Part shown: positions 12,160 to 32,009 of the stretch, in pieces
How positions within the stretch are numbered: the stretch's first letter is position 1
Layout: every line of letters starts with the position of its first letter
Origin: Longimicrobiales bacterium
GTDB lineage: Bacteria; Gemmatimonadota; Gemmatimonadetes; Longimicrobiales; Gaopeijiaceae
DNA: 64,000 nt
Assembly: GCA_965238005.1 (NCBI GenBank)
Contig: OZ250165.1
Coordinates: forward strand, 3,200,001-3,264,000
Reading direction: 5' to 3'
The notes under the pieces: model-generated
What the model saw: the letters and a program-made list of their open reading frames with translations, nothing else
The model's database searches: none
Told to the model about the DNA's origin: nothing
Position numbers and translations under genes: made by a program

Positions 12160-12276
12160 CGTCGCGCCTAACGAATCAAGTACTCGGGGCATCTAGAGTT
12201 CGGTTGCGTCGTGCCGGTCTCTTTCGAGTGGTCCCGGCCGAGACACATTACCTCAGGAAACGCCAGGATATCGACA

Positions 12277-13308
12277 ATGTCCATAGGTCCCATCCGTTTC
12301 GTTCGAGCCACGGTCCTGTTCGCGCTCCCGCTGTCATTCTGGGCCGCAGCCGTCAGCGGGCAAGACAGCGATTTCGACATTGACATCGCACGGATAGGAG
12401 TCGGCTCGATGTTCGAGCCGTTTCGCGTTTCCGAGAGCGAGCCGCTGCGGGACGCCATGTCCTCGGGCAAGCTCCAAGGTGACGCCCGTGTCCTCGTCAT
12501 GGACCCCACAGCGGGGCGGCTCGCGTTTCTCACGGACCAGATGGCATATCACCACGTGGCCCAAGGGGAGATCAACGGCGAGCCCTGGATGGTCTCCTTC
12601 TGAGTCGTATGCAACACAGGGGTCGGTCTGACTCCCACGGTAGACGGCAAGGTTCACCACTTCCGGACTCGGGGTATCTACAACGGCCTCTCGATGCTCG
12701 GCGACGAGGAGACGGGGTCCATCTGGAACCATATCACCGGCAGGGCGGTCTACGGACCGCTCGAGGGCTACACCCTTGCGGTCTTCAACCTCCTGCACAT
12801 GACGGCGGAGCAGGCGCTGGACCGCTATCCCGGGCTGTCCGTCGCCATCTCGGACCGTCCGGTCCGTGGTCGCAGAGGGTTCTTCGCCCCCGTCGCTGAT
12901 CGGCTCCCCTTCCTTCGGGAGGGCTTCAGGAGCACGATCGTGCAGGAAGATACACGTCTTCCGACCATGGAGATCGGGCTCGGAGTCTGGACCGAGTCGG
13001 AGCGGCGGTACTATCCCATGGAGGCCGTCCAAGCGGGCGGGGGAGCCATCGTCGATGGCTTCGACGGCAGACGCCTGGCCGTCTATGTAGAGCCCGGGTC
13101 CTACTCTCTGGACGCGTTCTTCACGGAGGAGCAGACGGTCTCAGCGGACGGCTCTCGCGTCACGGTGGGCGAGGAGCTGGTGCTCGAGGGCGGTGTCCTC
13201 CGGGATGCGAGTGGCCGCCAACTCGAGATGGACAGGCCACTTCAGTTGTTCTCGAGGTGGTACGGTTTCGCCCTGACCTTCCCCGGCACCACCATCTACG
13301 GGCGCTAG
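12277..13308 (+). CDS. DUF3179-family exported selenoprotein (Sec at in-frame TGA 12601-12603, U-V-V-C)
   Basis: ORFs 12211-12603 and 12694-13308 are in one frame: GEPWMVSF-U-VVCNTGVG...RGIYNGLSMLGDEETGSIWNHITGRAVYGPLEG; signal peptide; SECIS-like hairpin downstream. Confidence 0.85.
12619..12635 (+). promoter_or_regulatory. Putative bacterial SECIS hairpin
   Basis: GGGGTC-GGTCT-GACTCC; loop starts 21 nt after TGA. Confidence 0.7.
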
Positions 13309-13336
13309 CGCCCTTTCCACTAGACCGGTGCTGGCG

Positions 13337-14281
13337 TCACTGGACCCAAGCCGGATCGGCGGAGTCCGCGGCTGGCTCACCACCCCGGTATCCGTGGTTG
13401 GACTCGGGCGAGCGGTCGTAGACCGTTTGGCCCTGTCCTTCATTCATGGTCCAATAGCCGCGTAGCCCAACCGAACTGACATCGACGCCCGTCTCAAGAA
13501 CCACCTGAACCTCAGAAGGTGAGAGGCTCCTGGACCACATGGCGGGGTTATCGATCTCACCTGGGAAGAACCAGATGGGCGGCTCCTTGCCACCGGGCGG
13601 CAGAGGGCCGATTTGGCCATGCGTCGCACCCACGCTCAGGAACTGTTGGTTGTTGAACGAGGGGGTGCCGGTCCCCTCACACCGGGCTTGCTCTACGGCG
13701 TCCACATAGAAGACCAGGGTACCAAGGACGTCCCTGGTGACGGCCACATGATGCCACGCGCCGTCGGCAACGAACAGGTTGCCGGACTCACAAACCCCCT
13801 GCGGTACGCAATCATTGTTCGGATAGCAGTAGTTGTCCTCATTGGACGCCTCGAGCATGGCCTCCAAGAACCCGTCCGGTCCCACGTACATCTGCCAGCT
13901 GAGGTTGAAGGAGTTGTCGTCCTCACCCCTTGCGATGACCGCAGCTCGTCCGCCGGGAGGCGTTAGCCGTAGCCAGGCGACGACCGTGAAGACGTCGGTC
14001 GGGAACGAGACGTCCCAAGGGACCAGGACCCGATCGTCCATGCCGTCGAACATCAGGTGAAAGTCTTCTCCGGACTCTGGCGGTGGATCGCCGGGGTCGA
14101 AGGGCGAGGTCGGCTCATCGTCGATCGCCGGGTCCGTGGCGCCCTGCCCTCCGCAGGCGCCGGCCACTCCGAGCATGAGCACGAGCACGAGCGCCCATCC
14201 GCGAGCTCGCCGTGCATCTCTGACCCTGGGCCCTCCCGGAGTCACTCCGGCTGCGCCAACTCGTGCTCGCGCCGGTCTCAC
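13337..14281 (-). CDS. LamG/concanavalin-A-like domain lipoprotein
   Basis: Lipobox AGAC; FDGMDD, WHHVAVT, FPGEIDNPAMW, GYWTMNEGQG; exact start uncertain. Confidence 0.75.
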   Translation of the reverse strand: MRPARARVGAAGVTPGGPRVRDARRARGWALVLVLMLGVAGACGGQGATDPAIDDEPTSPFDPGDPPPESGEDFHLMFDGMDDRVLVPWDVSFPTDVFTVVAWLRLTPPGGRAAVIARGEDDNSFNLSWQMYVGPDGFLEAMLEASNEDNYCYPNNDCVPQGVCESGNLFVADGAWHHVAVTRDVLGTLVFYVDAVEQARCEGTGTPSFNNQQFLSVGATHGQIGPLPPGGKEPPIWFFPGEIDNPAMWSRSLSPSEVQVVLETGVDVSSVGLRGYWTMNEGQGQTVYDRSPESNHGYRGGEPAADSADPAWVQ

Positions 14282-14345
14282 GGGGCTCCAGCCTCGACGA
14301 CGAACTGGCCCATCATCCCGACGTCTTCGTGCTCGAGGATGTGGC
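14278..14345 (-). pseudogene. C-terminal remnant of a multicopper oxidase
   Basis: HILEHEDVGMMGQFVV (type-1 Cu motif HCHxxxHEDxGMM); no upstream body. Confidence 0.6.
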
Positions 14346-14736
14346 GGCCCCGGCAGTGAGTCGCAGCATCTGCCGCCTTGATATCGGACTTTGTCGGTAC
14401 ACGGTGTATCCCTAGTCGCACCGCGCGTTTGCTGTGTCTCGGCACCCGGGTGTCACCCCAACCATGAGCCGGGACACACCGAAGGTGGTTCCGCGCGCTG
14501 AGTAGGAGATGTGCCACAACCTCCGTTCGTTAAGCTCCGGCCCGTGCCCGTGTAGCGGAGGCCATAACGCAGCGGGTCGGCCGAGAACAGCATGGCGGCA
14601 GCCGATAAAACCTGCGTGGTAGCAGCGGGCGAGATGGCCGGAGGTTGTGGGGAAGCTCGAGGTGCAGTCGCCGGGCACCCGAGCACGACGTGGCTTGTGG
14701 CGAGCGCGTCGTGCCCGCGAGACCTATCTTTTGAGA

Positions 14737-16429
14737 ATGCCCGAACGCACGTCACCCGTCGGCACAGCCGTCCTCGACCAGATTCCCAAGGCATTCCGGC
14801 TGGAGAGCATCAAGAGCCGGATCGTGGGCCTCGCCTTGCTGGCCACGCTGATCCCTTCCCTGGGGATGGCCTGGATCTCGTACGTCCAGAACCGCGCCGC
14901 CCTGACCGACAAGATCAATGAAGAGCTACAGAGCGTGAGTGCGCAGACCGCTCGCGAGATCGACCTCTGGCTCAAGGAGCGGCTCTACGACGTCCGGGTC
15001 TTCGCGAGCTCCTACGAGGTAACCGAGAACATCGAGCGCGCTCGACGGACGGACGGCGGCGGTCAAGCGGGCGCTCGGCTCAACGGCTACCTCACGTCGG
15101 TCGAGGAGCGGTTTCCGGACTACGACGAGTTGCTCGTCATCGACCGGCAGGGCCAGCGGCTCGCATCGAGTGCCGAGCGCTCCGGCGACGTTCATCTCCC
15201 ACTCGGCTGGCTCGACCGCGTGGCGGCAGACCAAACGGTGATTGACGCGTACTGGGACGAGCAGCTCGGCCAACCGCTCATGACCGTTGCTGTCCCGGTC
15301 ACCGCTGCGGACCGCACCTTCGTAGGTGCGCTCGTCGCCAACGTCACGTACCGGGCCGTGCTGACCATACTGTTGGTCTTCGCCCCGGGCGATTCGGGCA
15401 ACTTGTACGTGATCGCGCCGGACGGGGCCACGATCGTCAGCTCAGGCGCGGACGCGCGGCCGCTCGCCGAGCGCAAGCTCGCGTCCGCCACGACAGAACT
15501 CCTGTTCGCGAGCGAGGGCAGTCCCGTCACCTACGCCGATCGTGATGGAAACGAGGTCATCGGCACCTTGAAGCGGGTTCCGCGGTTGGATTGGGCGGTC
15601 GTGGCGGAGATCCCGGCGAAGGAAGCCTACGCGCAGGTCGTGCAGCTGCGCGACGTAACGGCGCTTCTTGTCATGGGGCTCCTAGTCGTGGTCGGCTTCA
15701 TCGCGTACCGTTTGGGCCTCCTGATCGTGCGCCCGCTGGATCGGCTGACCGCGGGTGCCGCGGAAGTTGCAGCGGGTGACCTCGCGGTGGACCTGCCCGT
15801 GGGCAAGGGCGAGGTCGGGTACCTCACCGAAGTGTTCAACGGGATGGTCGACCGCCTGCGCGCAGGACGGCAGCAGCTCGAGCACCTGGTGGTGACCGAC
15901 CCGCTCACCGGGATATCGAACCGCCGGCACCTGATGGAGACGCTGGAGAGCGAAATGCGCCGCGCGAAGCGCGCGAAAACGTCGTTCGCGATCCTCATGG
16001 CGGACGTCGACCGTTTCAAGAAGTTCAACGACACGCACGGCCACATCGCGGGAGACGAGGCCCTCAAGACGATTGCAGAGGTCTTGAAGGAGGCGACGCG
16101 CGGGATCGATCGTGTCGCGCGCTACGGAGGGGAAGAATTCCTGGTCGTGCTGCCGGAAACGGGCATCGACGGCGCGGTCAGGGCAGCCGAGCGAATCCAT
16201 GAGCGGCTGGCCAAGCGCGGTGTGGCCGTCGGTCACGGTGACACTGAGCACCGGCGTCGCCGAGTTTCCCACCGACGGCGACTCACCCGAGTCCTTGATC
16301 GCTTCGGCAGACGTGGCGCTCTACCAGGCCAAGCGGGGCGGACGCGACCGGGTGATGCGCGCGAGTCGCCGCCGACAGACAACCGCAGTAAAACCAACGA
16401 AGAGGAAGAAGGAGGAGGACTCCTCGTAG
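14737..16429 (+). CDS. Cache/HAMP/GGDEF diguanylate cyclase, frameshifted near 16230
   Basis: TDPLTG, DVDRFKKFNDTHGHIAGD, RYGGEEF; C-terminus VTLSTGVAEF...ADVALYQAKRGGRD in another frame. Confidence 0.8.
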
Positions 16430-17257
16430 CTACTGGCCACCCTCGAGGGGGCTCGTAACGAGGTTGTGGAAGATCCAGCCATCGCGTCCCTGGTCGTCGG
16501 TGATCCGCACCCACTGTTCCGTATACGAGTGCCCCACCAGGGGCGTCGCGGGATCGAGCGTAAAGAGCACACGAAACCCGAGCCCCGGCCCCGCGCGCAC
16601 GTTGCTGCGCCGTGCCGTTTCTAGCGACAGCGGCAGCGCGAACAGCACTTCCCCGGGCTGCCGGTCCCCGCGCTCACCGATGGTGAGCCGGACCTCGCCC
16701 CTGCGGGCCACCCTGCGGGCCTGGCTCGCCAGGTAGAGCGCACCGCCGTAGTTCTCATCGGCGAACTCGGTCGTGCTGAGTACCAGGAGGTGCCGCGCCT
16801 GGGCAGCCTCGGGCACTTCCTCATCTCCCGCAGCTCCGGTCAGGGCCTCCAACGCGATCTCCGCCTCCGCCATCACCGACGCCGCTTCCGCACGACTGGC
16901 CAACGTCTGCAATCGTGCCATTGCGCGCAGGATCTCTTGTCGCGCCGCTTCGAGCTGACGTTGGAGGTCTTCGACCTGTGCGGCGCGTTCCAAGAGTTGG
17001 AGCTGGAGGGTGACGGCGCGCTGTTCGAGGTCCGGATCGCGATCCGGTCCCACGCGAACCACCACCGTGTCGACGACCACCACCGTGTCGGGCGTCGGGG
17101 CGGGTGTCGCCGGCGGGGCGCCGGCGGCGCACGCCGCGAGCGAGACGCCAAACGCGGAGCACAGCGCACTCTCGAGTCGACGAGCCAGTCGGGGCATCAT
17201 GGTAAGAAGATGTACGCGCTCGACCCACACCGCCATGGAATCGACGTCACGCCTCAA
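16430..17257 (-). CDS. Coiled-coil + SH3-domain lipoprotein
   Basis: LAAC lipobox; NVRAGPG...WVRITDDQGRDGWI SH3b-like; start uncertain. Confidence 0.65.
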   Translation of the reverse strand: MRRDVDSMAVWVERVHLLTMMPRLARRLESALCSAFGVSLAACAAGAPPATPAPTPDTVVVVDTVVVRVGPDRDPDLEQRAVTLQLQLLERAAQVEDLQRQLEAARQEILRAMARLQTLASRAEAASVMAEAEIALEALTGAAGDEEVPEAAQARHLLVLSTTEFADENYGGALYLASQARRVARRGEVRLTIGERGDRQPGEVLFALPLSLETARRSNVRAGPGLGFRVLFTLDPATPLVGHSYTEQWVRITDDQGRDGWIFHNLVTSPLEGGQ

Positions 17258-18267
17258 ACCCGCAGCACCACCTTCCCGTAGCTCTCCCGGGACTCGATGA
17301 GACGATGGGCCCGGGCCGCCTCGTCAAAACCGAAGACGTGGCCCACCTGAGGCCGGATACCATGCTCTATGCAGAAGGTCGTCACCTCGTCCCAGGTGGC
17401 CCGCATCCGCCGGAAGTCGGGGAGCAGATAGCCGAGATGGGCCGAGGACATCCCCCGGGCGTTCGTGTACATCTCCTCCAGGCTCATCCGGGGCTTGCCC
17501 CGCCATGCACGCCACCAGGACAGCGGGTTCCAGAGGGAGTAGTCCAGGGCCGCATACCCTGCCACCACCACGTGGCCGAAGGGGGCCAGCGCGCTCTTGG
17601 CGGCGGCGAAGACCTCGCCGCCTACCATGTCGAAGGCGATGTCGATCCCCTCCGCGCCGGCGGCATCCTTCAGGGCCTTCTGCCAGCCGGAGCGTCGGTA
17701 GTTGACGGTCTCGTCGGCGCCTAGCTCCCGGATCCGCTCCAGCTTGAGGTCGGTGCCTGCCGCGCCCACCACGTAGCAGCCGAAGTGGTGAGCGATCTGC
17801 ACCGCGGCCGTGCCCACTCCGCCACCTGCCGGGGAGATGAGGACCCGGTCGCCGGCCCGGAGTCGGCCCATCTCCACGAGGCTCACCCACGCCGTGGCGT
17901 AGTTGACGCCGAAGGCGGCATTCTCCTCCACGCTGAACCCTTCCACCGCCGGCGAGGCCTTGGATTCGTCCACCACCAGCCGCTCGGCGTAGGCTCCGTG
18001 CTGCATCCCCACGACAACCGATTCGCCGGGTCGGCGCTCGACGCCGTCGCCCACCGACTCGATGCGTCCCGTGGCCTCCATCCCCAGGACGTAGGGCAGG
18101 TCGGGGGCCCATCCGTACAGGCCCTTTCGGGAAAGGACCTCGGCGTAGTTGATGCCCACGGCCTCTACCCGCACGGCCACCTGACCCGGTCCGGGGGTGG
18201 GATCGGGCAGCTCCGTGGGTCGGAGGACGTCGGGCGAGCCGTGGCGGTTCAGGAGGTAGCCCTTCAT
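17254..18267 (-). CDS. NADPH:quinone oxidoreductase / MDR family
   Basis: AVGINYAE, PYVLGMEATG, AGGGVGTAAVQ, SYGKVVL. Confidence 0.85.
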   Translation of the reverse strand: MKGYLLNRHGSPDVLRPTELPDPTPGPGQVAVRVEAVGINYAEVLSRKGLYGWAPDLPYVLGMEATGRIESVGDGVERRPGESVVVGMQHGAYAERLVVDESKASPAVEGFSVEENAAFGVNYATAWVSLVEMGRLRAGDRVLISPAGGGVGTAAVQIAHHFGCYVVGAAGTDLKLERIRELGADETVNYRRSGWQKALKDAAGAEGIDIAFDMVGGEVFAAAKSALAPFGHVVVAGYAALDYSLWNPLSWWRAWRGKPRMSLEEMYTNARGMSSAHLGYLLPDFRRMRATWDEVTTFCIEHGIRPQVGHVFGFDEAARAHRLIESRESYGKVVLRV

Positions 18268-18312
18268 GGCAACACGATGATCACCCCTCTCAGCTCATCG
18301 AAGAAGTTCGTC

Positions 18313-18363
18313 GTATACGTATCTTTATATCGTGAGTATACGTACGGAGGGGCATGTCCAAGA
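18313..18363 (+). repeat. TACGTA-N17-TACGTA operator/promoter-like module with RBS and orphan ATG (copy 1)
   Basis: 35 bp identical (reverse complement) to 34783-34817; right half plus GGAGG-ATGTCCAAGA also at 20308-20343. Confidence 0.75.
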
Positions 18364-18384
18364 GACCACAGGGACACTGCCTCC

Positions 18385-18687
18385 TCACCCGCCAGCGATG
18401 GCGCCGACCACACAGAGAACGTCGCCCCCCGAGGTCACGCACTCGGGGAGCCGCACGTCGGGTTGGTCATGCGACAGGTCCTGCCCGCAGGCGAAGAATC
18501 GTATGAACGCTCGACGCGTTTCGGTTCCGTGGTCGCGGATCGTGCCTCGTAGCATCGGGTAGCGGGACTCCAGAGCGTCGAGCACTGTCGTGATGGTAGG
18601 GGGGTCCGCAACTTCCAACCGCAACTCGCCCACGACCCGAGCCAGGGTTCGCAGGTGCGCCGGTAGCGCGATCCTTACCTCCGTCAT
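18385..18687 (-). CDS. MoaD/ThiS-family ubiquitin-like protein
   Basis: ~100 aa, C-terminal AIAGG; ATGA overlap with upstream gene. Confidence 0.85.
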
Positions 18688-19799
18688 GGGATGGTTTGCA
18701 CCTCCACCGAGCACACCCTGGGGAGGTGCTCCGCGATCGTCCGCCAGGTGTCGCCGGCGTCTGCAGAGGCGTAGACCTGCCCGCCCGTAGTGCCGAAGTA
18801 GACGCCGCACGAGTCGAGCGCGTCCACCGCCATGGCATCGCGCAGGACGTCCACGTAGCAGTCACGCTGCGGAAGGCCGTTGGTGAGCGCCTCCCAATCG
18901 TTCCCGCCGGTGCGGCTTCGATATACGCGGAGCTTCCCCTCGGGCGGGTAGTGCTCCGAGTCGCTGAGGATAGGCACCACGTAGATCGTCTCGGGCTCAT
19001 GGGCGTGGACGGCGATCGGGAAGCCGAAGTCCGACGGCAGGTTGCCGCTCACCTCGGTCCACGATTCGCCGGCGTCGTCGCTGCGACAGACGTCCCAGTG
19101 CTTCTGCATGAAGACCGTGTCGGGCCGCGACGGGTGTAGCGCAAGCTTGTGAACGCAGTGACCGATCGGGGCCTCCGGCTCGGGCAGAAAGTTCGAGCTC
19201 AGTCCCCCCGTGGCGACCGCCCACGACTCGCCCCCGTCATCAGTGCGGAACACCCCCGCCGCCGAGATGGCCACGTACATGCGCTGCGCGTCCGCAGGGT
19301 CGATGAGGATCGTGTGTAGGCACATACCCCCGGCCCCAGGCGCCCAATCCTGCCCCGTCGAATGCGTACGCAGCCCGGCGAGCTCGGTCCACGTGTGACC
19401 GCCGTCACTCGAGCGGAAGAGGGCGGCATCCTCTACCCCTGCGTAGACCGTGTCGAGATCATTGGGTGACGGCTCCAGGTGCCAGACGCGCTTGAACTCC
19501 CACGGGTGTGGCGTGCCATCGTACCACTGGTGTGTGCCGGGGACGCCCTCGTAGGCGAACTCGTTCCCGACGGGCTCCCAGCACTGCCCGCCATCGTCGG
19601 ACCGCTGAACGACCTGGCCATGCCAGTCGGTCCACTGTGAGGCGTACAGACGATCAGGGTCGGCGGGAGAGCCCTGGACGTGCATGACCTCCCACCCTCC
19701 GAAGTGTGGCCCCTCGATTCTCCAGTCGCGCCGGGCGCCATCCGAGGTAATCACGAACGCGCCCTTTCCCGTCCCTACCAGGACCCGGATCTCAGCCAT
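18684..19799 (-). CDS. BNR/Asp-box beta-propeller protein (exo-alpha-sialidase-like)
   Basis: Repeated SxDGGxxW Asp boxes; GGAGG RBS; coupled to MoaD-like gene. Confidence 0.85.
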
Positions 19800-20310
19800 C
19801 TGCACCTCCGTATGTGGGCTCCTCGATCGAAAGGTTCACCAGCTCTCGGAACCGATCCAGTGGGCTCCGCCCCCCCGGCGTCTGAGTGAACACCAACCCG
19901 ATGATCTGGCGCTCGGGATCCACCCACGCGTCCGTGCCGTCCGAGCCGCCGTGGCCGTATGTGCCGTCGGCCAGGCGCCAGCCGTATCCGTAGTACGACG
20001 CCTCGCTGCCTTCTCCTGCGACGTGGATCTTGGGCGACGTCATGAGCTCAACGGTCTCGGGCTGCAGATGTTCCGACGAAGGCTCCATCAGCGGCTGCAG
20101 GAACAGGCTGGAAATCCGGAGTCCGCTGCTGTGGGAAAGGAGCTGCCCGATCGTGATTAAGCCCGCCCGGTAGTGGTCCCACTCGGGGATGTACGTCCAG
20201 ACCAGGTCATCGTACTCGAGCTTCTCCTGCTCCACCAGCTGTGTGATGGCTGTGGCCACTACCGGCCTGGTGTTGGAGGCCATGCGGAACATGGTGTTCC
20301 GCTCCACATC
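19792..20310 (-). pseudogene. Serine hydrolase (beta-lactamase family) remnant
   Basis: FRMASNTR (SxxK changed to SxxR), LLSHSSG, HGGSDG; central YxN region and N-terminus missing. Confidence 0.7.
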
Positions 20311-20343
20311 GTGAGTATACGTACGGAGGCTGCATGTCCAAGA
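20308..20343 (+). repeat. Partial copy of TACGTA module (copy 3)
   Basis: ATCGTGAGTATACGTACGGAGG..CATGTCCAAGA matches 18329-18363. Confidence 0.7.
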
Positions 20344-20455
20344 AGGCCCGGCATGCCACTTGTGTGCTCCTCGACAGAGGACGGCACGTCTCAAGAATGT
20401 GCGACCCCTAGGAGGCTGCGCTTTCGCATAAGACCGTGTTGGTGGCGCGGTCTTC

Positions 20456-20671
20456 TTAGTCGCCGGCTTCGTATCTGAAGGAGACCTTGACCTTCGCGCG
20501 GTAGCTCTGAACGGCACCGTCCCTGAGCTGCAGGTCCAGCTCTGAGACCTCCGCCACACGCAGGTCCCGCAGCGACTGGGAAGCACGTTGGACGGCTGCT
20601 GCCGCAGCCTTCTCCCACGACTCAGTAGAGGTTCCTACTAGCTCGATCACTTTGTACACACTCTCAGCCAT
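20456..20671 (-). CDS. Dodecin domain protein
   Basis: VYKVIELVGTSTESWE...YRAKVKVSF. Confidence 0.9.
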   Translation of the reverse strand: MAESVYKVIELVGTSTESWEKAAAAAVQRASQSLRDLRVAEVSELDLQLRDGAVQSYRAKVKVSFRYEAGD

Positions 20672-21103
20672 CTTTTTTTCTCCTCCCCAGCCGTGTGGCG
20701 GGCACGTAACGGATTTGTGATTGACGGGTTAAAAGATAACACTCGAAATAATTCACCCCTCCGGGGATCGGGGCCGACGTGCGGTCGATCGGGCACGATC
20801 ATAACCGCTGTCTTGCCCTGACCCGCTCTCGGAACATGTACGCCTGCTCCACAATGCGCTTCTCCCTCTCAACAACATCCAGCGACTTGCTTTCTGCAAT
20901 GAACGATTGAACCCGAAACATGCGGCGACACATTGTCAAACTCTTCCGATACCTCTAACGCTAACCCCCCGAATAAGCTCTTGAACTGCCTTCGGCTCAC
21001 ACGAAATCTTGCCAGGGCATTAGCAAGTATACGGCCAAGAACTTGCTCATGTCACCGATTGATCATGTCGTCCGCTAGCAATCGAGTGCTTGCCGATTCT
21101 AAC

Positions 21104-21322
21104 CTAATCCGTGGGGCTCATCCGGCAAAATCGGTACCGAGAAATCGTCACGAGGCCAGAGCATGTTACTTGCGTGAACATCGGTACCATTGTGGGAAAG
21201 CTTGACTTGTGGTCTTTCCGTCCGAGAAATACCTCGGAAACAGGGTAACCGCCGCCCAGCGCATGAATCGTAATCGCGATGTCGACACCATACTGCAGAG
21301 CAACAGAGCTGCCGGGAATCAT
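21104..21322 (-). pseudogene. Possible glycosyltransferase remnant in a lower-GC patch
   Basis: YGVDIAIT...SEVFLGRKDHK resembles GT-A (mannosyl/glucosylglycerate synthase-like) motif; no intact ORF. Confidence 0.3.
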
Positions 21323-23198: not shown

Positions 23199-24655
23199 GA
23201 AGCTGTCCCAACCGTAGTTGAAGGTTCCTGATAGGGGAGAAAGAAAAGTGGTGGCTCCGGGGGTCCCGGGCCGATAGGCTCGGGTAGGCAAAAACCCCAA
23301 CACGGAGCCACCACGATGAAGAGAACGTACGAGGTAAGGGATCGGGCGGACAAGCGCGCGATCAGGGAGTTCCTGAAGCGGGAGGGGCAGTTTCTGCTTC
23401 CGATGCTTGAGCTCGTGGAGCAGACGGAGGTCGCGATCGACGAAGTCATCCAGGTGATGGGACGAGCGACGATCGAAGCGGTGCTGGAGATGAGCGCCGA
23501 GGGTGTGGCAGGCGTGAAGCAGGCAGGTCGGTCACGAGCGGAAGACGACACGGTGTGGTATGGCCGGCAGGGTGGTGTGGTTTACCTGTCGGACCGGAAG
23601 GTGCGTGTGGAGCGGCCACGGCTCAGGCGCCGGGGCGCCGGGGAGGGTGGCGAGGTCGAGGTGCCGGCGTACGCAGCGATGCGGAGACCGGGCGCCGTGG
23701 CGGATCGGATGCTCGAGGTCCTGATGGCGGGGGTGAGCACGCGGAAGTACGGCCGTGTGATCGGTGAGATGGCCGACACGGTCGGGGTGAGCAAGTCGGC
23801 GGTGAGCCGTGAGACGGTCGAGGCCTCGGAGCGCGTGCTGAAGGAGCTGATGGAGCGCCGGCTGGATGCGTGGGACCTCCTGGTGATCTACCTGGACGGG
23901 ATCCAGATGGGCTCGCACCACGTGCTTGCTGCGGTAGGCGTGGACTCAGACGGAAAGAAGCACGTGCTGGGCGTGAGGGAAGGAGCGAGTGAGAACGCCG
24001 AGGTGACCAGCGCGCTCCTAGAGGATCTGGTCGAGCGCGGCCTGGACCCGGGCAGGCGGCGGCTGTTCGTGATCGATGGCTCGAAAGCGCTCAGGAAGGC
24101 GATCGAGAAGGTGTTCGGCCAACGTCACCCCATCCAGCGCTGCCGCAACCACAAGCTCCGCAACGTGCTGGGTCATCTGCCGAAGGATCAGCATCCTCAG
24201 GTGAAGGCGGCGTTCCGGGCGGCGATGAAGCTGGACGCGAAGCAGGGCGAGCAGAAGCTCGAGCAGCTCGCCCGATGGCTCGAGCGCGACCACCCCTCGG
24301 CCTCGGCCAGCCTACGCGAAGGCCTCAGCGAGATGTTCACGATCAACCGGCTCGGCCTCCCGCCGCGGCTGAGGAAGTGCCTGGGCTCGACCAACCTGAT
24401 CGACAGCACCCACTCGGGCGTAAGACAGAAGACCCGCAGGGTGACCAACTGGAAGAACGGAGCGATGGCCTTGCGCTGGGCTGCGGCCTCGTTCGTGGAG
24501 ACCGAGAAGAGCTACCGGAGGATCATCGGCTACGACCAGCTCTGGATGCTCAGGGCCCACCTCGACGACCATGAACCGGTTGCCGAAATGAGAAAGGCAG
24601 GCTAACAAGGAGACTCTCCGGAGCCACCACCTTCAACTGTCAGCGGGACACCATC
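23199..24655 (+). mobile_element. IS256-family insertion sequence (1457 bp)
   Basis: IRs GAAGCTGTCCCAACCGTAGTTGAAGGT / rc GATGGTGTCCCGCTGACAGTTGAAGGT; 8-bp TSD TGGCAGCC (23191-23198, 24656-24663). Confidence 0.9.
23316..24605 (+). CDS. IS256-family transposase
   Basis: GVSTRK, YLDG, IDGSKAL, QRCRNHK, STNLIDS mutator-type motifs. Confidence 0.92.
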   Translation: MKRTYEVRDRADKRAIREFLKREGQFLLPMLELVEQTEVAIDEVIQVMGRATIEAVLEMSAEGVAGVKQAGRSRAEDDTVWYGRQGGVVYLSDRKVRVERPRLRRRGAGEGGEVEVPAYAAMRRPGAVADRMLEVLMAGVSTRKYGRVIGEMADTVGVSKSAVSRETVEASERVLKELMERRLDAWDLLVIYLDGIQMGSHHVLAAVGVDSDGKKHVLGVREGASENAEVTSALLEDLVERGLDPGRRRLFVIDGSKALRKAIEKVFGQRHPIQRCRNHKLRNVLGHLPKDQHPQVKAAFRAAMKLDAKQGEQKLEQLARWLERDHPSASASLREGLSEMFTINRLGLPPRLRKCLGSTNLIDSTHSGVRQKTRRVTNWKNGAMALRWAAASFVETEKSYRRIIGYDQLWMLRAHLDDHEPVAEMRKAG

Positions 24656-25008
24656 TGGCAGCCGACAAGAACACACTGCAGCGGGTCACAACCAACCTCG
24701 GGCCCTTGAGACATGGTACGGGGCCTCGCCGCAGGCACGCTGCAACCTCGGAGTATATCTCGGCAATACGAGCCACTGCAAGGCGAGACCCTGCCGAGGC
24801 GCCGTATATGCCCCGTCATTTCATTAACGTGAGCCTGCTGTGCGCTACACAGGCAGTGTGCGACTACGATGCCTACCGCGCCAGCCGCAGTCAATTCCGG
24901 GCCGGCTGAGGGTGGAGGGCAATGAGCTAACCTATGAAAGCGTCCGGACATCTTCGCCTCCGGCCCCCCTCTCTGGCTCCGTGTGGTGGTCATCGGGTGC
25001 GGTAGGAG

Positions 25009-26379
25009 CTAAACCCCGTTCTCGTCCACGGCCAGCAGGCTGCGAAGCAGCACGTTCGCGCCCGCCGTTATCTGTTCTGGGGGTGTCATCTCCAGGGGCG
25101 AGTGGCTGATCCCATCCAGGCTGGGCACGAAGATCATTCCCACGGGGCCCAGGTGCGCGATGCTCTGCGCGTCGTGCCCGGCGCCGCTGGGCATGCGCAA
25201 CGTGGTGAGGCTGAGCCGCCGGGCCTCGGCTTCGATGACGTCCCGGAGGCGCAGCGCGGTGGGAGCGGCCCGGCTGGTGTAGAACTGCTCGAACTCCACG
25301 CTCGTGCCGTCGCTCTCGGCCAGCGCGGCGGCCTCGCCTCGGATCGCCTCGAAGATCTCGTCGATCTTGGACATCTCCAGGTCGCGGATCTCCAGGCTGA
25401 ACGTGACCCGTCCGGGAATCACGTTGGGCGCGCCCGGCTCAGCGCTCACGCGGCCGACCGTGGCCACCTGCCGTCCCGGCGTGGTGCGCGCGATTCGGTT
25501 GACGGCCTCGATCATCCGGGCCGCCGAGACCATGGCGTCGTGGCGCTGATCCATGGGCGTGGTGCCGGCGTGGTTGGCGAAGCCTTCCACCGTGACGGTC
25601 CAACGCTTGATGCCCACGATGCCCTCGACCACTCCGATGTCGATGCCGGCCCGGTCGAGGACGAAGCCCTGCTCGATGTGGAGCTCGAAGTACGCCGTCA
25701 GCGAGCCGGGCTCTCGTCGAGCCTCCTCCAGCCGGCTCAGGTCGCCGCCGATGCGCAGCGTGCCTTCCCCGATCGTAAAGCCACTCGCCGTTCTGACGTC
25801 GAGCTCGGCCGGGTCCACCTCGCCCGAGATGGCGCGGCTTCCCGTCTTCCCGCCTTCCTCATTCGCCCAGATGACGAATTCGAGACCGTGGCGGGTGCGA
25901 TGGCCCGCGTCGGCCAGCGTGGTCGCGACCTCCAACGCGGCCATGGAGCCCACCTGTCCGTCGTAGTTCCCGCCCAACGGGACAGAGTCGATGTGTGATC
26001 CGAGCAGCAGCGGCGGCAGGTCAGGGTCGGAGCCCGCGCGCTGGCCGATCAGGTTCCCTGCGAGGTCGACCGAGACTTCGAGCCCGGCGTCGCTCATGAG
26101 GGTCGCCACCCACTCGCGGGCGGCGATGTCGGCGTCGCTGTAGGCGACCCGGCTGACCCCTCCCGCGGGCGTGGCGCCGAAGCGGGCCAGATCGGTGAGC
26201 GTTCGGCTGAGGCGGTCCCCGTCCACCAGCAAGTCGGGCGGGGCCGGGGCGACACGGGCGCCGCCCACCAGCAGATGGGGAGCGTTCCCGGCGCCGCCGG
26301 GCAGCCGCCAGAGCGCGGGCGGCACCATGCCGAGCGCGAGCCCTCCTGACGCGAGACGGGTGAAGTGACGGCGGTCCAT
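25009..26379 (-). CDS. M20 Zn-dependent amidohydrolase (allantoate/N-carbamoyl-amino-acid hydrolase type), Tat-exported
   Basis: MDRRHF Tat motif; GSHIDSV, NEEG, ELHIEQG, SGAGHDA, GISHSP. Confidence 0.88.
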   Translation of the reverse strand: MDRRHFTRLASGGLALGMVPPALWRLPGGAGNAPHLLVGGARVAPAPPDLLVDGDRLSRTLTDLARFGATPAGGVSRVAYSDADIAAREWVATLMSDAGLEVSVDLAGNLIGQRAGSDPDLPPLLLGSHIDSVPLGGNYDGQVGSMAALEVATTLADAGHRTRHGLEFVIWANEEGGKTGSRAISGEVDPAELDVRTASGFTIGEGTLRIGGDLSRLEEARREPGSLTAYFELHIEQGFVLDRAGIDIGVVEGIVGIKRWTVTVEGFANHAGTTPMDQRHDAMVSAARMIEAVNRIARTTPGRQVATVGRVSAEPGAPNVIPGRVTFSLEIRDLEMSKIDEIFEAIRGEAAALAESDGTSVEFEQFYTSRAAPTALRLRDVIEAEARRLSLTTLRMPSGAGHDAQSIAHLGPVGMIFVPSLDGISHSPLEMTPPEQITAGANVLLRSLLAVDENGV

Positions 26380-26614
26380 GGCTCGTCCGTTCTATGTTTG
26401 GCCGGCCCCTGTGTGGCCTCCAGCGCCCAGACGGGTGACTGGATCGGACACGGGCGAACTCCGAGACCAGACCGAGGTCAAGATCCTATGAGGGGGCCGG
26501 GAGGCGCAAGCGGCAGGCGAACGGTCTGACTCGCTGAGCGGGTTTTCCCCAGGGGCGGCGAGTCTGTAGTTTCTCTGCGGCTCATCGCTGCCATCACAAC
26601 AGGACCTGCGCCTG

Positions 26615-27739
26615 GTGCCCAACCCGATCCCATCGCAAATCCAACACGAGGCCAGCCCGATCGTGGTGATCGGCCGCGTCGTCTACTTCCTCGCCCTGCT
26701 CTACCTGTTCTTCTCCAGCATCGAGCTGATGAGCACCGCGTTCAAGATGAGCGGCGCAGGACTCGCGGATCAGCTCCTGAACACGGCGTCGGACCCAGTC
26801 GCCGGGCTGCTCATCGGATTCCTGGCCACGAGCCTGATCCAGAGCTCCTCGACCACCACCACCATCGTGGTGGGACTCGTGGCGTCCGGTGCGCTCACCA
26901 TTGAGCTCGCCGTGCCCATCATCATGGGTGCGAACATCGGAACGACAACGACGAACACAATCGTGTCGATCGGGCACGTGACCCGTCCGGCGGAGTTCGA
27001 GCGGGCCTTGGCGGCTTCCACGGTGCACGACTTCTTCAACGTGCTCGCGGCGTTCACGCTCCTGCCAGTGGAGATCCTTTTTCACCCGGTCGAGAAAACG
27101 GCGATCTTTCTGCAGCGCGTGTTCGCCGGTGCCGGTGGCATGAGCCTGGCCAGCCCTCTCAAGCTGGTCGTGGGTCCACCCGCCGAATTCCTCTCGGAGT
27201 TGATCCCCTACACGATTCCGCTGGGCATTCTGGCTCTCGCTCTGCTCTTCATGGCCCTGCGAGGGATGCTGACGTTCATGCGGGGCGTCGTCCTACAGCG
27301 CCTGGAAGGGCTCTTCGACAGGGTCCTCTTCCGTAACGACGCCGCGAGCTTCACTCTGGGCGTCGTTGCGACGGCGTCCGTGCAGAGCAGCTCGGCGACG
27401 ACGTCTTTGATCGTGCCCTTGGCGGGCACCGGGGTCCTCACCCTACGTCAGATCTTCCCGTACACGATTGGGGCGAATATCGGAACCACCATCACCGCGA
27501 TCCTCGCCTCGTTTTCGACCGGAAGCCCGGCGGCGGTGACCATCGCCCTGGCTCACCTGGCGTTCAATATGATGGCCGTCGCGATCTTCTATCCTCTGAA
27601 GGCCCTGCCCATCGAGCTCGCGAGGAGGTGGGGCGTCTTCGCGGCCCGCTCGAAGGTGAGCACTGCCACTGTGTTCTCTGTCTATATCGCGTTGCACGTC
27701 ATACCGCTCGCGTACATCATTTGGTCAGCGAAAAGGTAA
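26615..27739 (+). CDS. Na+/phosphate cotransporter (NptA-like)
   Basis: Two QSSS repeats and two GANIGT motifs. Confidence 0.9.
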   Translation: MPNPIPSQIQHEASPIVVIGRVVYFLALLYLFFSSIELMSTAFKMSGAGLADQLLNTASDPVAGLLIGFLATSLIQSSSTTTTIVVGLVASGALTIELAVPIIMGANIGTTTTNTIVSIGHVTRPAEFERALAASTVHDFFNVLAAFTLLPVEILFHPVEKTAIFLQRVFAGAGGMSLASPLKLVVGPPAEFLSELIPYTIPLGILALALLFMALRGMLTFMRGVVLQRLEGLFDRVLFRNDAASFTLGVVATASVQSSSATTSLIVPLAGTGVLTLRQIFPYTIGANIGTTITAILASFSTGSPAAVTIALAHLAFNMMAVAIFYPLKALPIELARRWGVFAARSKVSTATVFSVYIALHVIPLAYIIWSAKR

Positions 27740-27745
27740 CAAGCC

Positions 27746-28426
27746 ATGTGGAAACAAATCGTCGCGCTCTTCAGGTCCGGAGGCCCACTGCAGGAGGCAT
27801 ATGACGAGGCGATCCTGATGCTTCGGGCCTCCCACGACATGTTCGACCACGCAGTCACGGCGCTCCACGCGGAGGGCACGCCAAAGACCGACATCTACAA
27901 GCGCGATCAGCAGCTCAACAAGTACGAGCGGAGCGTTCGTCGCAAGATCGTCACGCACATGTCCGTGTCGTCAAAGCCTGACATCAACCTGGGACTGGTG
28001 CTCACCGCGATCGTCATCGACATCGAGCGGATCGGCGACTACACCAAAAACATCGTGGAGTTGGCGTCCGCGGTTCCGGGGCCCTTCGATGGGCTCGAGC
28101 TACACGACAAGGTGGTTGGGATCGAGCAGATCATGGCTCGGATGTTCGATGACATCGTGCCCGCCCTTGAGGAATCCGACATGGTTCGGGCCAGGGGCAT
28201 CATAAAGTCCCACACCTCCATCGCATCCAAGGTGGACAAACAAGTGCGTGCCCTGTGCTCGGGTAAGGCGTTGTCGGGACGGTCGGGGCATGCGGTCACG
28301 GTAGCACTCTATCTGCGCTATCTGAAGCGCGTCAGCGCGCACCTCAAGAACGTGGCCACCAGCGTAGTGAATCCCTACCACCGGATCGGATTCCGGGAGA
28401 AGAAGTCTCGAGCCAAAAAGGGTTGA
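27746..28426 (+). CDS. PhoU-domain protein
   Basis: DIERIGDYTKNI, RYLKRVSAHLKN; directly downstream of Na/Pi transporter. Confidence 0.85.
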   Translation: MWKQIVALFRSGGPLQEAYDEAILMLRASHDMFDHAVTALHAEGTPKTDIYKRDQQLNKYERSVRRKIVTHMSVSSKPDINLGLVLTAIVIDIERIGDYTKNIVELASAVPGPFDGLELHDKVVGIEQIMARMFDDIVPALEESDMVRARGIIKSHTSIASKVDKQVRALCSGKALSGRSGHAVTVALYLRYLKRVSAHLKNVATSVVNPYHRIGFREKKSRAKKG

Positions 28427-28437
28427 TCGGGAGCCGA

Positions 28438-28650
28438 ATGAACGAAGAGCAGTGGTTCGGCCTGCTGGGGCTCATCGTCGGCCTCTATCTATTTGTGTGC
28501 GCGACTTGGAAAAGAGACTTCTTCCTCTACGACTGGAAGGTGCAACGGGCCATCGCTTGGTATGGAGAGGAGAAGGCGCACCTTGGCTTTCAAATAGGTG
28601 GAGTCATCGTGATGATCGTGGGCGTCCTGAAGTTGCTGCAAGTGATCTAA
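28438..28650 (+). CDS. Small two-TM hypothetical membrane protein
   Basis: GGAG RBS + ATG; two hydrophobic segments. Confidence 0.55.
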   Translation: MNEEQWFGLLGLIVGLYLFVCATWKRDFFLYDWKVQRAIAWYGEEKAHLGFQIGGVIVMIVGVLKLLQVI

Positions 28651-28659
28651 GGAATCCCC

Positions 28660-28960
28660 ATGCGGTGGTCATCGTCTGATCGTCTTTCTTGACGAGACGC
28701 ACATTGTGGTAGGCCGTCGAACCCGTAGACATCCCCACGTCCAATCGAAGCTCGGCGATGCTCTCGCGTGGGACCTGACGCTTCCGCATGGGCAGGAGCA
28801 TCCGGTGTGTCACGGTGACCCCCTCCGGCCCGGCGGTGACCCGTGTGCTTCCCAACAACAAGAAAGCGAAGACGCCAGCGAAGAACGCGTCGACCACGAG
28901 CAGGCCGTAGAAGAACGGAAAACGGATCCTCTCGGAGCGGCGCCAGGATGGTGACGGCCA
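28660..28960 (-). pseudogene. Remnant of membrane protein with bacterial PH-like C-domain
   Basis: TM segment then STRVTAGPEGVTVTHR...RESIAELRL; no proper start or end. Confidence 0.35.
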
Positions 28961-29119
28961 GCTCGGTCTCCGTTGTCCAGTTGCGAGCGCCCACCTTCCG
29001 CATATAGTCTGAGAGCCCACAAGCCGGCACAATGCAGGCTGAGGTTCGTAGTGACCCCAGACGCCTTGCGACGGTATCCGGCCATAGGCGGATCGGTTAA
29101 CCTGGCCTCTGGGGGAGAG

Positions 29120-29953
29120 ATGAAGATGAACGCGCACTGTAGTCGAGTCATCCGTCGGACCCGAGCCGCGTTGGGGATCGGGGCCCTACTCACCGCCTTT
29201 GTTTGGAGTGTCGGGGCTCGGGCGGCTGTGGCCCAGGAGGCCTCCCGAGGAAATGATCCGAAGGCGCTGGAGCTGGTGGAATCCTGGATCGGCGCCCTGG
29301 GAGGCATGGAGCTGTATCACAACCTGCGGACCGCCCAGTTCACGTTGACCACCGAGATGTATGACACCGCCTCGGGACGATTGAGGAGGACGAGGCCCCG
29401 CTACGTCACGATCGCGCAGTTGCCGGGTGCGCTTGCGGCCCGTATCGAGCGGTGGGAGGGGGACGACTTCATCGTGCAGGGATGGGACGGGGTGACGGAT
29501 TGGGCGTACATGAACGGGCGGCGCCTGACTCCCAAAGACAAGGACCGACAAGAGGTGCGCTATGTGTCGGGGGACGTCAACTACTGGATCGCGCTTCCGT
29601 TCAAGCTAAAGGATCCTGGTGTATACCTGCACTACGACGGAAGGGACGATGCGGGTCGCCACGTTGTACGGGTGACCTTTGGCGAGGGGATTGGTAACGA
29701 TGAGTGGCACTACTATTTCGTCGACGGACGCACATGGCCCGTTCAGGTGGATTACCAAGAAGTAGGCAGAACGAACGCGAACCACACCAGGTGGGAAGAG
29801 ATCCAGAGTACCGATGGGTACTACTACGTCGGCGCCCGCGTACACTTCGATGACGAGGGCCGCGTCTTCAAGATCGTCCGCACCGGAGACGTCAAGATCA
29901 ACGGCAGGGTGGATCTCGACGTGTTCTCGCGGCTCGGCTCCTCGACAAACTAG
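29120..29953 (+). CDS. Secreted hypothetical protein (LolA-like fold possible)
   Basis: Signal peptide ending AVA-Q; ALELVESWIGALGG; YWIALPFKLKDPGV. Confidence 0.65.
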   Translation: MKMNAHCSRVIRRTRAALGIGALLTAFVWSVGARAAVAQEASRGNDPKALELVESWIGALGGMELYHNLRTAQFTLTTEMYDTASGRLRRTRPRYVTIAQLPGALAARIERWEGDDFIVQGWDGVTDWAYMNGRRLTPKDKDRQEVRYVSGDVNYWIALPFKLKDPGVYLHYDGRDDAGRHVVRVTFGEGIGNDEWHYYFVDGRTWPVQVDYQEVGRTNANHTRWEEIQSTDGYYYVGARVHFDDEGRVFKIVRTGDVKINGRVDLDVFSRLGSSTN

Positions 29954-30040
29954 TCCGGAGTTCGCGGTTGGGGCCGTCTCTCGCCGGCCGGCCCCAACCC
30001 CTCAGCTATTGGCCGAGCGTACGACCGGAACACTCACGAG

Positions 30041-30166
30041 GTCCAGTGGGAGTTCGATGCGAGCCGTGGCTACCCGACCCGGATCTTCATCGACTATTCG
30101 GAGATGGTCATGGACGAAGAGCTGGGCTTCACGCTGTTGGGTGACGTTCGGGCCTTGGGAGACTGA
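30041..30166 (+). pseudogene. DUF6174-like C-terminal remnant
   Basis: EFDASRGYPTRIFIDYSEMVMDEELGF with no N-terminus. Confidence 0.45.
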
Positions 30167-30378
30167 CGCTCATCACCGAGCCCGACGATGAACCTCCGTT
30201 CTGAGCGAGGGTGTGGATGGGAAACCTGTGCGTCGATCATCGGAAGAGAGGCCAAGCCCATGTCCCGCGAAGACGTTCGCCTTGCCACCCACGGCTCGAA
30301 ATCCCATCGTGGTACCCCTGAGTGGTGTGCCACGCCTCTCCGAGGTCAACCGAACCCTACCTTTCTTGGGAGCCTATC

Positions 30379-31008
30379 ATGATCCGTCGAATCTCTTTAG
30401 CAGCCCTTGCGCTTCTGATCGCAGTGCCGCTGGCGGCGCAAGCGCCCGAAGGGTGGCAACTGCGGGTGGACCGGAGCAGGAACGCTGCCGACCCGGACGA
30501 CGTGCCCGAGGTGGAATTCGGGACCGCGGAAAGCGGATTCCAGATCAACACCGGCCCCGCCGCCGTGGCGTGGAAGTCGGAGAACACCGCGTCGGCCACC
30601 TACACCCTCGAGGGCAAGTTCACCTTGCTCGAACCCAGCGATCACGCGAACTACTACGGTCTCGTGTACGGCGGCGGTGACCTTGAGGGCTCCAGACAGA
30701 ACTACTTGTACTTCCTGGTGGCACAGAACGGCAGCTACATCGTCAAACACCGGGCGAACGACGAGACGACCCACGACATAGTCGGCCGGACGCCGCACGA
30801 CGCGGTGGTGGAGCCCGACGCCAATGGTAAATCGGTCAACGAGCTGCAGGTACGGGTGGGGGAGGATCAGACCGAGTTCGTCGTGAACGGAACAGTCGTC
30901 CACACCGAGGCGAGGTCAGGGATGGCTTCCCGCACGGACGGCATCTGGGGCGTCCGGATCAACCACCGCCTCCCGGGCGTTGTGGTCGAGGGACTGCGGG
31001 TCCGGTAG
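30379..31008 (+). CDS. Secreted hypothetical protein (beta-sandwich)
   Basis: GGGAG RBS, signal peptide PLAA-Q, GC3-rich codons. Confidence 0.7.
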   Translation: MIRRISLAALALLIAVPLAAQAPEGWQLRVDRSRNAADPDDVPEVEFGTAESGFQINTGPAAVAWKSENTASATYTLEGKFTLLEPSDHANYYGLVYGGGDLEGSRQNYLYFLVAQNGSYIVKHRANDETTHDIVGRTPHDAVVEPDANGKSVNELQVRVGEDQTEFVVNGTVVHTEARSGMASRTDGIWGVRINHRLPGVVVEGLRVR

Positions 31009-31391
31009 TTCCCTCCCGCTGACGGAGGTTTCCGATGCCTTCGTGGACGATTCGAATGACTGGGCCGCTCGGCGTGTTCTTGCATCCCTGAACCGCCCGC
31101 GCATCTTGGTCCGGGAACCGGCCCAGGAACGGGAGTTCCTCGGGGTATCCCCGGCTCGCTCCCGGGCGGTCGCGCCACCTCACAGGGCCTTTGTTTCGCC
31201 TTCTATCCCTTGAGAAATTTCAGAAAATCGCCCCCCGGCGCTCTCTCGCCGAAGGAGGGCGAATGATCCCAGTACGCCGTCAGCTTCGATTGCTCGAGGA
31301 GGTTGGGCCGCCCCCCGTCTTGCGGATCTGGGCTCGGCCGAAGCACCCGATTTGACGACGAGCTCGTGACGGATCGGGGCACGCGGTACGG

Positions 31392-32009
31392 TCAGTTCAG
31401 CTCGGCGAGCGCCTCCAGGATGTCTTCGTTCGTCGGCCGAATGCGGTAGTCGATCTCGATGAATTTCCAACGGACCTCACCTCGCTTGTCGATAACGAAG
31501 ACGGCGGGGTGCGGGACCGACCGCTGCCGCGACTCGTCCGGATTGAACAATCCGTAGCGATCGATGACCGCGTGATCGGGATCGGATAGTAGCGGAAACT
31601 CGATAAGCATACCGTCGTCCTCGGCGACCCGATCGATCATCATCTGCTGCTGCTCGAGCTCATCCACCGAAAGCGCAAGCAACTCAGTATTCTCCCTCCG
31701 CTCTGGAGAAAGGAGTTCTCTCAGCTCACCGAGCTGACTGGCGCAGTAGGGTCACCAGTGGCCCCGGTAGAAGACCAGGACGACGTTCTTGTCATCGCGG
31801 TAGTCGGACAGCGTCGTCACCGTTCCCGCGTACGTCATCACCGAAAAGTCGGGCGCGATGTCGCCCACCGCGACCCTACCCGTGTCGATGGCGGGAAGGT
31901 CGAAGCCATCGTGCGGTCCGAGGCGAATCTCCGGCCTCGCCGTGAGCCAGGCAGTAACCGCCAGCGCAGCGGCAAGTCCCAAGAATACAACCAACCCTTT
32001 GGCTTTCAT
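31392..32009 (-). CDS. AhpC/TSA (peroxiredoxin-like) selenoprotein, Sec at TGA 31754-31752 (W-U-P-Y-C)
   Basis: ORFs 31752-32009 and 31392-31682 are in one frame: APDF...VVLVFYRGHW-U-PYCASQLGEL...LALSVD...FPLLSDPD...PAVFVID; 205 aa; SECIS-like hairpin. Confidence 0.88.
31721..31737 (-). promoter_or_regulatory. Putative bacterial SECIS hairpin
   Basis: TCAGCTC-GGT-GAGCTGA perfect 7-bp stem; loop starts 21 nt after TGA. Confidence 0.75.

Follow-up and report, generated by a model that had tools for sequence, protein, structure and literature searches.

Bacterial selenocysteine insertion sequence (SECIS) elements have been described by the consensus model of Zhang and Gladyshev, which, as summarised in section 5 of PMC13188914, places a loop of 3-9 nucleotides (nt) on a stem of 4-16 base pairs (bp) at a spacing of 16-37 nt from the UGA codon. 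In the same summary, one of the first two loop positions is a G, as a rule with G or U after it, and the free energy is -7.5 kcal/mol or lower. Listed selenoprotein families include DUF3179 (PF11376), with a UxxC/T motif (PMC9312934, PMC13188914), and the Prx-like thiol:disulfide oxidoreductases (PF00578), with a UxxC motif (PMC13188914). We analysed a 64,000-nt stretch of DNA, hereafter the window (G000:C1:3200001-3264000), in which one gene of each family carries an in-frame TGA followed by a hairpin. The window belongs to a 4.84-Mb, single-contig genome of 64.8% G+C, whose closest public relatives are metagenome-assembled genomes (MAGs) of Longimicrobiales (Gemmatimonadota). For orientation, the SECIS of Escherichia coli fdhF has the loop GGUCUG, with G23 and U24, and its register places the loop 18 nt after the UGA.

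Throughout, the T of the TGA is numbered 1, and spacing is the number of nucleotides between the TGA and the apical loop. The DUF3179 gene occupies 12277..13308 of the window on the plus strand and, with TGA translated as selenocysteine (Sec, U), encodes a product of 343 residues when counted from the ATG at 12277 with the stop included; this product has a signal-like N-terminus and carries the motif U-V-V-C. Its Sec codon (UGA, 12601..12603) corresponds to U131 when counted from the GTG at 12211 (context ..PWMVSF-U-VVCNTG..), and its apical hairpin (12619..12635) pairs 12619-12624 with 12630-12635 around the loop GGUCU at 12625-12629. The Prx-like gene lies 19 kb away on the minus strand (31392..32009) and encodes an AhpC/TSA-fold protein of 205 residues with a hydrophobic N-terminal segment and a U-P-Y-C motif. 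Here, the Sec codon (31752..31754) corresponds to U86 (context ..FYRGHW-U-PYCASQ..), and the apical hairpin (31721..31737) pairs 31731-31737 with 31721-31727 around the loop GGU at 31728-31730. Reading the TGA as Sec fuses the flanking open reading frames (ORFs) into one continuous protein at each site, and the Pfam matches run across the U in both products (PF11376, E 4e-23, residues 65-280; PF00578, E 4e-31, residues 48-181). The Prx-like gene truly terminates at the TGA at 31392-31394, which is also where the Pfam match and every orthologous match stop. This stop (31392-31400) and the Sec-TGA (31746-31754), both on the minus strand, are each followed by the same six bases, CCCTAC.

A first-pass annotation of the window had described two unrelated UxxC genes with a GGT-led loop 21 nt after the UGA, and this description holds. 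Both strings that it quoted occur exactly and once each in the window (12601-12635, plus strand; 31721-31754, minus strand), and neither arose in 100 shuffles (0/100). In the minimum free energy (MFE) fold of the 60 nt from the TGA, the hairpins appear as GGGGUC[GGUCU]GACUCC for DUF3179 and UCAGCUC[GGU]GAGCUGA for the Prx-like gene, with stems that start 15 and 14 nt past the TGA, respectively, inside the frame-continuous ORFs. The DUF3179 hairpin has a 5-nt loop on a 6-bp stem (one G.U pair), the Prx-like hairpin has a 3-nt loop on a 7-bp stem, and at both sites the loop starts with GGT 21 nt past the TGA. The MFE values of the 60-nt folds are -16.4 kcal/mol (DUF3179) and -18.7 kcal/mol (Prx-like). 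The perfect apical stem alone reaches -8.6 kcal/mol in the Prx-like gene and lies above -7.5 kcal/mol in the DUF3179 gene, the published cut-off of -7.5 being meant for the whole element.

The conservation of both TGA codons was followed through 201 genomes of the same class. Homologs of DUF3179 are present in 13 of these genomes (20 hits), and 17 of the 19 hits outside the query genome contain exactly one TGA. The Prx-like gene is more widespread, being found in 63 class genomes, with exactly one TGA in 62 of them; the remaining genome has a homolog without any stop. The TGA of the Prx-like gene is thus kept in its orthologs, and at the aligned DUF3179 site Cys codons (TGC or TGT) occur in homologs from Marinithermofilum, Paludifilum, Salinithrix, a cyanobacterial MAG and an Anaerolineae MAG.

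The stems are conserved as structures in addition to being conserved as coding sequence. In 16 distinct DUF3179 sequences, 99% of the cells in stem 19-24/30-35 are paired and two of the six pairs have changed on both sides: pair 21:33 occurs as G.U, G-C, C-G and A-U, and pair 22:32 as G-C and A-U. Likewise, across 28 distinct Prx-like sequences, 99% of the cells in stem 18-24/28-34 are paired, with both sides changed at two of seven pairs (18:34 alternates between U-A and G-C, 22:30 between C-G and U-A). None of 500 shuffles matched the observed pairing or covariation score, and registers slid along the alignment gave 29-60% pairing overall (31-60% for DUF3179), with the caveat that covariation counts are inflated by kinship among the sequences. 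Double changes that restore pairing within coding sequence are what a SECIS predicts. The check in orthologs that the first-pass annotation had proposed, by RNAfold and covariation, returned hairpins within the MFE folds and compensatory stem changes in both families. In Rfam, nothing reached gathering score across the whole window, and permissive scans of both sites gave chance-level matches only; it seems that Rfam has no general bacterial SECIS model that matches these two hairpins.

The genome also encodes the means to decode such codons. A tRNA-Sec gene lies at 1907151-1907247 on the minus strand of the genome, and SelA, SelB and SelD genes were all found besides it, so that the Sec-decoding trait is complete; a genome without selB or tRNA-Sec, which would have counted against the first-pass annotation, is not what we see. 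Taken together, the Pfam matches across U, the conserved TGA, the compensatory changes and the Sec machinery indicate, at the level of sequence, that both TGAs are probably Sec codons and both hairpins SECIS elements. In our view, the window very probably holds two genuine selenoprotein genes, unrelated to each other and from families already known, each with an ordinary bacterial SECIS inside its coding sequence. In the established bacterial mechanism, the ribosome would pause on the UGA while SelB, loaded with Sec-tRNA(Sec), binds the G-led apical loop, and Sec would be inserted in place of termination. Each gene family would keep its hairpin at a distance from the UGA that is fixed for that family, because conserved codons spell out the hairpin, and the equal 21-nt distance in DUF3179 and the Prx-like gene would be a matter of chance inside the wide tolerated range.

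Comparison of the loops among orthologs provides a rationale for the shared GGT. The first-pass annotation had inferred a Gly codon fixed at position +8 after the UGA, which the alignments contradict. At that codon, the 16 distinct DUF3179 sequences have GGT (5), AGT (8) or AGG (3), and the 28 distinct Prx-like sequences have GGT (4), GGG (9), GTG (10), GGC (2) or GGA (3); Ser, Arg or Val thus stands there in paralogs and orthologs. The invariant base is a G at position 26 in DUF3179 (16/16) and at position 25 in the Prx-like gene (28/28), and the two loop consensuses, [G/A]G[U/G]NU and G[G/U]N, are therefore one nucleotide apart in register. The shared GGT is a coincidence of two overlapping loop consensuses in this genome and not a lineage rule.

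The two genes are part of a larger set of at least 16 selenoprotein genes in this genome, 15 with a domain across the TGA plus SelD. The set stems from a scan of 30,220 in-frame TGAs, 650 of which exceed a loose coding-signal threshold on both sides; 80 read-through ORFs, picked by eye from 557-650 candidates, were screened against Pfam. Most of these 80 were dropped because they had no domain, or had domains on one side of the TGA, as adjacent same-frame genes do. A spacing of 21 nt recurs at several of the retained sites. The DUF3179 gene of the window (a; genome position 3212601, loop GGUCU) and the Prx-like gene (3231754, loop GGU) are joined at this distance by a TxxU peroxiredoxin (1349100, loop CGUGAUCA), by an HMA protein with the motif GMT-U-VGC (4264883, loop CGUGU on a 4-bp stem) and by DUF3179 paralogs b and c (296274 and 1111092, loop AGUAU), whose spacing becomes 22 nt if an A-U pair closes the loop. 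Shorter spacings are found in ArsM-like methyltransferase a (1138568, loop CUCGAGA, 15 nt) and b (3644359, loop GGA, 17 nt), AhpD/CMD protein AhpD_a (2121131, loop CGGGA, 16 nt), UGSC (3501471, loop GUU, 19 nt) and FdhA (3491535, loop GUU, 19 nt), and longer ones in a Trx/AhpC-TPR protein (1630105, loop CGGGU, 23 nt), AhpD_b (2420275, loop CGGGAA, 24 nt), OsmC a and b (3999067 and 4721260, loop GGA, 26 nt) and SelD (578551, loop GUC behind a first hairpin at 11-29, 33 nt). Leaving aside the stand-alone HMA form, the families of the 14 selenoproteins outside the window are all listed in PMC13188914. Several of these 14 proteins begin with a signal-like or twin-arginine translocation (TAT) segment. 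The suggestion that the selenoproteome is partly exported is in keeping with this, given the N-terminal signal-like segments predicted in many of the genome's selenoproteins.

Some members of the set, and some candidates beside it, deserve separate mention. SelD is itself Sec-encoded (GAG-U-ASK, 578551), and its UGA is followed by two adjacent hairpins, at 11-17/23-29 with a variable loop and at 30-36/40-46 with a GUN loop. Both are kept across the class with compensatory changes, so that the G-led loop stands 33 nt past the UGA behind another helix. The genome has three DUF3179 copies, and paralog b (295552-296508, minus strand) carries a TAG besides its Sec-TGA and a low-complexity Gly/Arg run, with the SECIS hairpin intact; this copy is probably decaying. 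A TGA in a molybdopterin oxidoreductase (1701956, minus strand) was dropped as a Sec codon, three homologs having Tyr at that site without a stop. An MsrP/YedY-like Oxidored_molyb protein (2618414, minus strand; LP-U-KYGFK) and AtuA (2554024, minus strand) each have an in-frame TGA inside a Pfam domain that is apparently not Cys-aligned, and both were left uncounted. These three TGAs may reflect pseudogenes, assembly errors or something else.

The DUF3179 hairpin was also followed beyond the class in a public set of 80 loci, of which 6 lacked the motif even by a looser pattern and were left out. Among the 63 Gemmatimonadota TGA loci that match the motif, G26 is present in all 63, the stem is paired at 6/6 positions in 58 and at 5/6 in 5, and 14 have the loop GGUCU. 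Seven further TGA loci share the same register, one from a Gemmatimonadales MAG and six from other phyla: a Vicinamibacterales MAG (Acidobacteriota), a Desulfobacterales MAG, two Chloroflexota MAGs, a Planctomycetota MAG and Paludifilum halophilum (Bacillota). Their stems include GGAGUC/GACUCC, GGGAUC/GAUCCC, GGCGUC/GACGCC and GGAACC/GGUUCC. The same register in other phyla indicates a property of the gene family and not of the host. P. halophilum DSM 102817 (NZ_NOWF01000007.1) is a cultured Bacillota isolate, and its TGA-form DUF3179 has the hairpin GGAACC[AGUAU]GGUUCC in the same register and a Cys-form paralog in the same locus, making it a possible experimental system for the family.

Several observations weigh against the interpretation of ordinary, family-specific SECIS elements. 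The whole 60-nt folds are no more stable than shuffles (z -0.28 for DUF3179, -0.14 for the Prx-like gene), which is expected in 65% G+C DNA. The list of selenoproteins, drawn up with a home-made scan, is not complete, SelD having escaped the scan and been found by family search only, and the hairpins of Trx/AhpC-TPR, AhpD_b, ArsM a, ArsM b and the TxxU peroxiredoxin were called from a single genome. Most pertinent, four unrelated families in this genome (DUF3179, Prx-like, TxxU peroxiredoxin and HMA) have a G-led loop 21 nt past the UGA, a mild cluster that exceeds the expectation from a flat distribution; in simulations such a cluster has P 0.16 with 12 families on 12 positions and P 0.03 with 22 positions, neither null being realistic. 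This clustering could reflect a soft preference, in which the Gemmatimonadota SelB and ribosome are most efficient when the loop G lies some 25-26 nt away from the U of the UGA, such that newly arising or highly expressed genes, often exported and with thiol or metal functions, converge on 21 nt while older ones such as fdhA and selD keep inherited registers. The HMA loop, which is also at 25-29 in the one TGA-bearing HMA ortholog read, fits such a preference. It sits less well with the one-nucleotide offset of the conserved G between DUF3179 (26) and the Prx-like gene (25), with the occurrence of the DUF3179 register in other phyla, where it cannot have been shaped by this host, and with a cluster whose simulated P ranges from 0.03 to 0.16 under nulls that are not realistic. 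On balance we regard the soft preference as unlikely, although it survives better than the explanations that follow.

The proposal of the first-pass annotation was stricter: a lineage SECIS rule in which a GGU-led loop lies exactly 21 nt past the UGA, with a fixed +8 Gly, at most or all Sec codons, and which could be used to mine the genome. In favour of this rule, both window genes match it exactly, and the pattern is not equally common after true stops, since none of the 1174 TGA stops that end long, confidently called ORFs shows TGA-N21-GGT as a loop start with a stem of at least 5 bp. The exact pattern is found at 107 of the 120,428 TGA triplets in the genome and, among the 650 in-frame TGAs flanked on either side by coding signal, at the two window sites only. 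Because the exact pattern is so rare, the window pair is real and not random sequence. As a rule for the genome, it does not hold. Of the 16 TGAs on the Sec list used for this count, which included the later-dropped molybdopterin oxidoreductase and lacked SelD, 2 have the exact pattern, the count being 2 with either list, and loops start anywhere from 15 to 33 nt past the UGA across the 16 Sec genes. Absence from other Cys-aligned TGAs, with fdh and selD as examples, was what the first-pass annotation had said would speak against it, and the rule fails on this point because neither gene has the pattern, the FdhA loop lying at 19 nt and that of SelD at 33 nt.

Moreover, other families have conserved registers of their own. 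For FdhA, the 15 class orthologs read together with the genome's own locus have GGUCU at 22-26 (18 nt) on varied stems, and for UGSC the 15 class orthologs read in the same way also have GGUCU at 22-26 (18 nt), with stems that alternate between CAUGC/GCAUG and CGUGC/GCACG. OsmC has GGA at 30-32 in 16 loci, with C-G to U-A changes; the motif search was too loose here (47 matches in 16 loci), and the 16 sites in the ..GG-U-L.GT.GG context were used. AhpD_a has CGGGN at 20-24 in most of 19 loci, and SelD, read in 24 loci, has its GUN loop at 37-39 in most of the 20 that have the TGA. Within the two window families themselves, only 5 of 16 distinct DUF3179 sequences and 4 of 28 distinct Prx-like ones have GGT, with Ser, Arg and Val also occurring at +8, and the same DUF3179 hairpin occurs in other phyla. 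Nor did the pattern prove useful for mining, recovering 2 of 16 known sites and no new gene among the 650 coding-flanked TGAs scanned. A relaxed pattern (GT at 26-27 in the loop) matched 109 of the 30,220 in-frame TGAs, of which the top three alone are coding on both sides, and all three were known. The published consensus in a perfect-stem version accepts 8 of 16 Sec sites and also 131 of 1174 true stops, and was set aside as too crude a classifier. In the literature on Gemmatimonad selenoproteins and SECIS, covered partly by title and abstract, we found no paper stating a Gemmatimonadota-specific SECIS rule. The lineage-specific TGA-N21-GGT rule is refuted, and we give hardly any credence to a version of it in which most or all Sec codons obey.

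The weakest alternative, that the TGAs are real stops in split or decaying genes and the hairpins by-products of conserved amino acids with no decoding role, can draw on stems that lie in conserved codons (GV..TP; QL.EL), on the unremarkable stability of the 60-nt folds and on the TAG in paralog DUF3179_b, which may be decaying, but it is almost certainly wrong given a TGA at the Cys-aligned site in 62/63 and 17/19 relatives with frames open on both sides, stem pairs that change on both sides where codons change, a full Sec machinery in the genome and the membership of both genes in selenoprotein families listed in PMC9312934 and PMC13188914.

The surroundings of the two genes are unremarkable. 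The neighbours are unrelated: on one side they comprise a major facilitator superfamily (MFS) transporter, a lectin-like protein and a GGDEF sensor, and on the other a DPP-IV peptidase, PhoU and a Na/Pi cotransporter. The DUF3179 and Prx-like genes are on opposite strands, and no operon link between them is visible in the gene context within the window. Elsewhere in the genome, which has 68 tRNA calls and one transfer-messenger RNA (tmRNA) in total, two dense tRNA arrays (1035994-1037821 and 4451264-4453598) hold 17 ARAGORN calls each, one of those in the first array having an unassigned anticodon.

Our analysis has its main value for annotation. Standard gene finders would split each of these genes into two fragments, and there are at least 16 such genes in this genome. 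In addition, it serves as a warning against SECIS mining rules built from two examples. Given that a single genome has loops anywhere between 15 and 33 nt past the UGA and that the register is set per family, homology-based Cys/Sec searches, and not a fixed spacing, are the way to chart the selenoproteome. It is tempting to speculate further, though we think it improbable, either that the SelB and ribosome of Gemmatimonadota have a preferred, non-obligatory loop position of about 21 nt, with convergence on it by several selenoprotein genes that are unrelated and encode mainly exported thiol or metal proteins, or that genes such as DUF3179 move between phyla with a built-in, fixed-register SECIS that is accepted by very different SelB proteins. 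If true, either reading would be informative on the tolerance or tuning of the SelB-ribosome geometry.

Set beside the bacterial SECIS as summarised in section 5 of PMC13188914, both hairpins are stem-loops just 3' of an in-frame UGA within coding sequence, with loops of 5 and 3 nt and upper stems of 6 and 7 bp that are within the consensus, a loop that begins with G, then G, then U, and a 21-nt spacing that falls inside the 16-37 nt range. In these features there is no substantial difference from the consensus, the 3-nt loop of the Prx-like gene being at its lower limit; the closing C-G pair of this hairpin may open to give a CGGUG loop. The window genes also resemble their families closely. 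The DUF3179 gene is like the described selenoproteins in its Pfam match across U, its U-x-x-C motif and its Cys homologs, and is distinguished by the three copies in this genome, one of them probably decaying. The Prx-like gene shares the AhpC/TSA fold and has W-U-x-x-C at the thioredoxin-fold CxxC position, and differs by the hydrophobic N-terminal segment of its product, which suggests export or membrane anchoring. The DUF3179 loop GGUCU has the same sequence as that of E. coli fdhF but lies one codon (3 nt) further downstream, whereas the class FdhA and UGSC orthologs, with GGUCU at 22-26, are in the fdhF register, 18 nt past the UGA. The two genes and their SECIS elements are real but ordinary, and of kinds that are already known.

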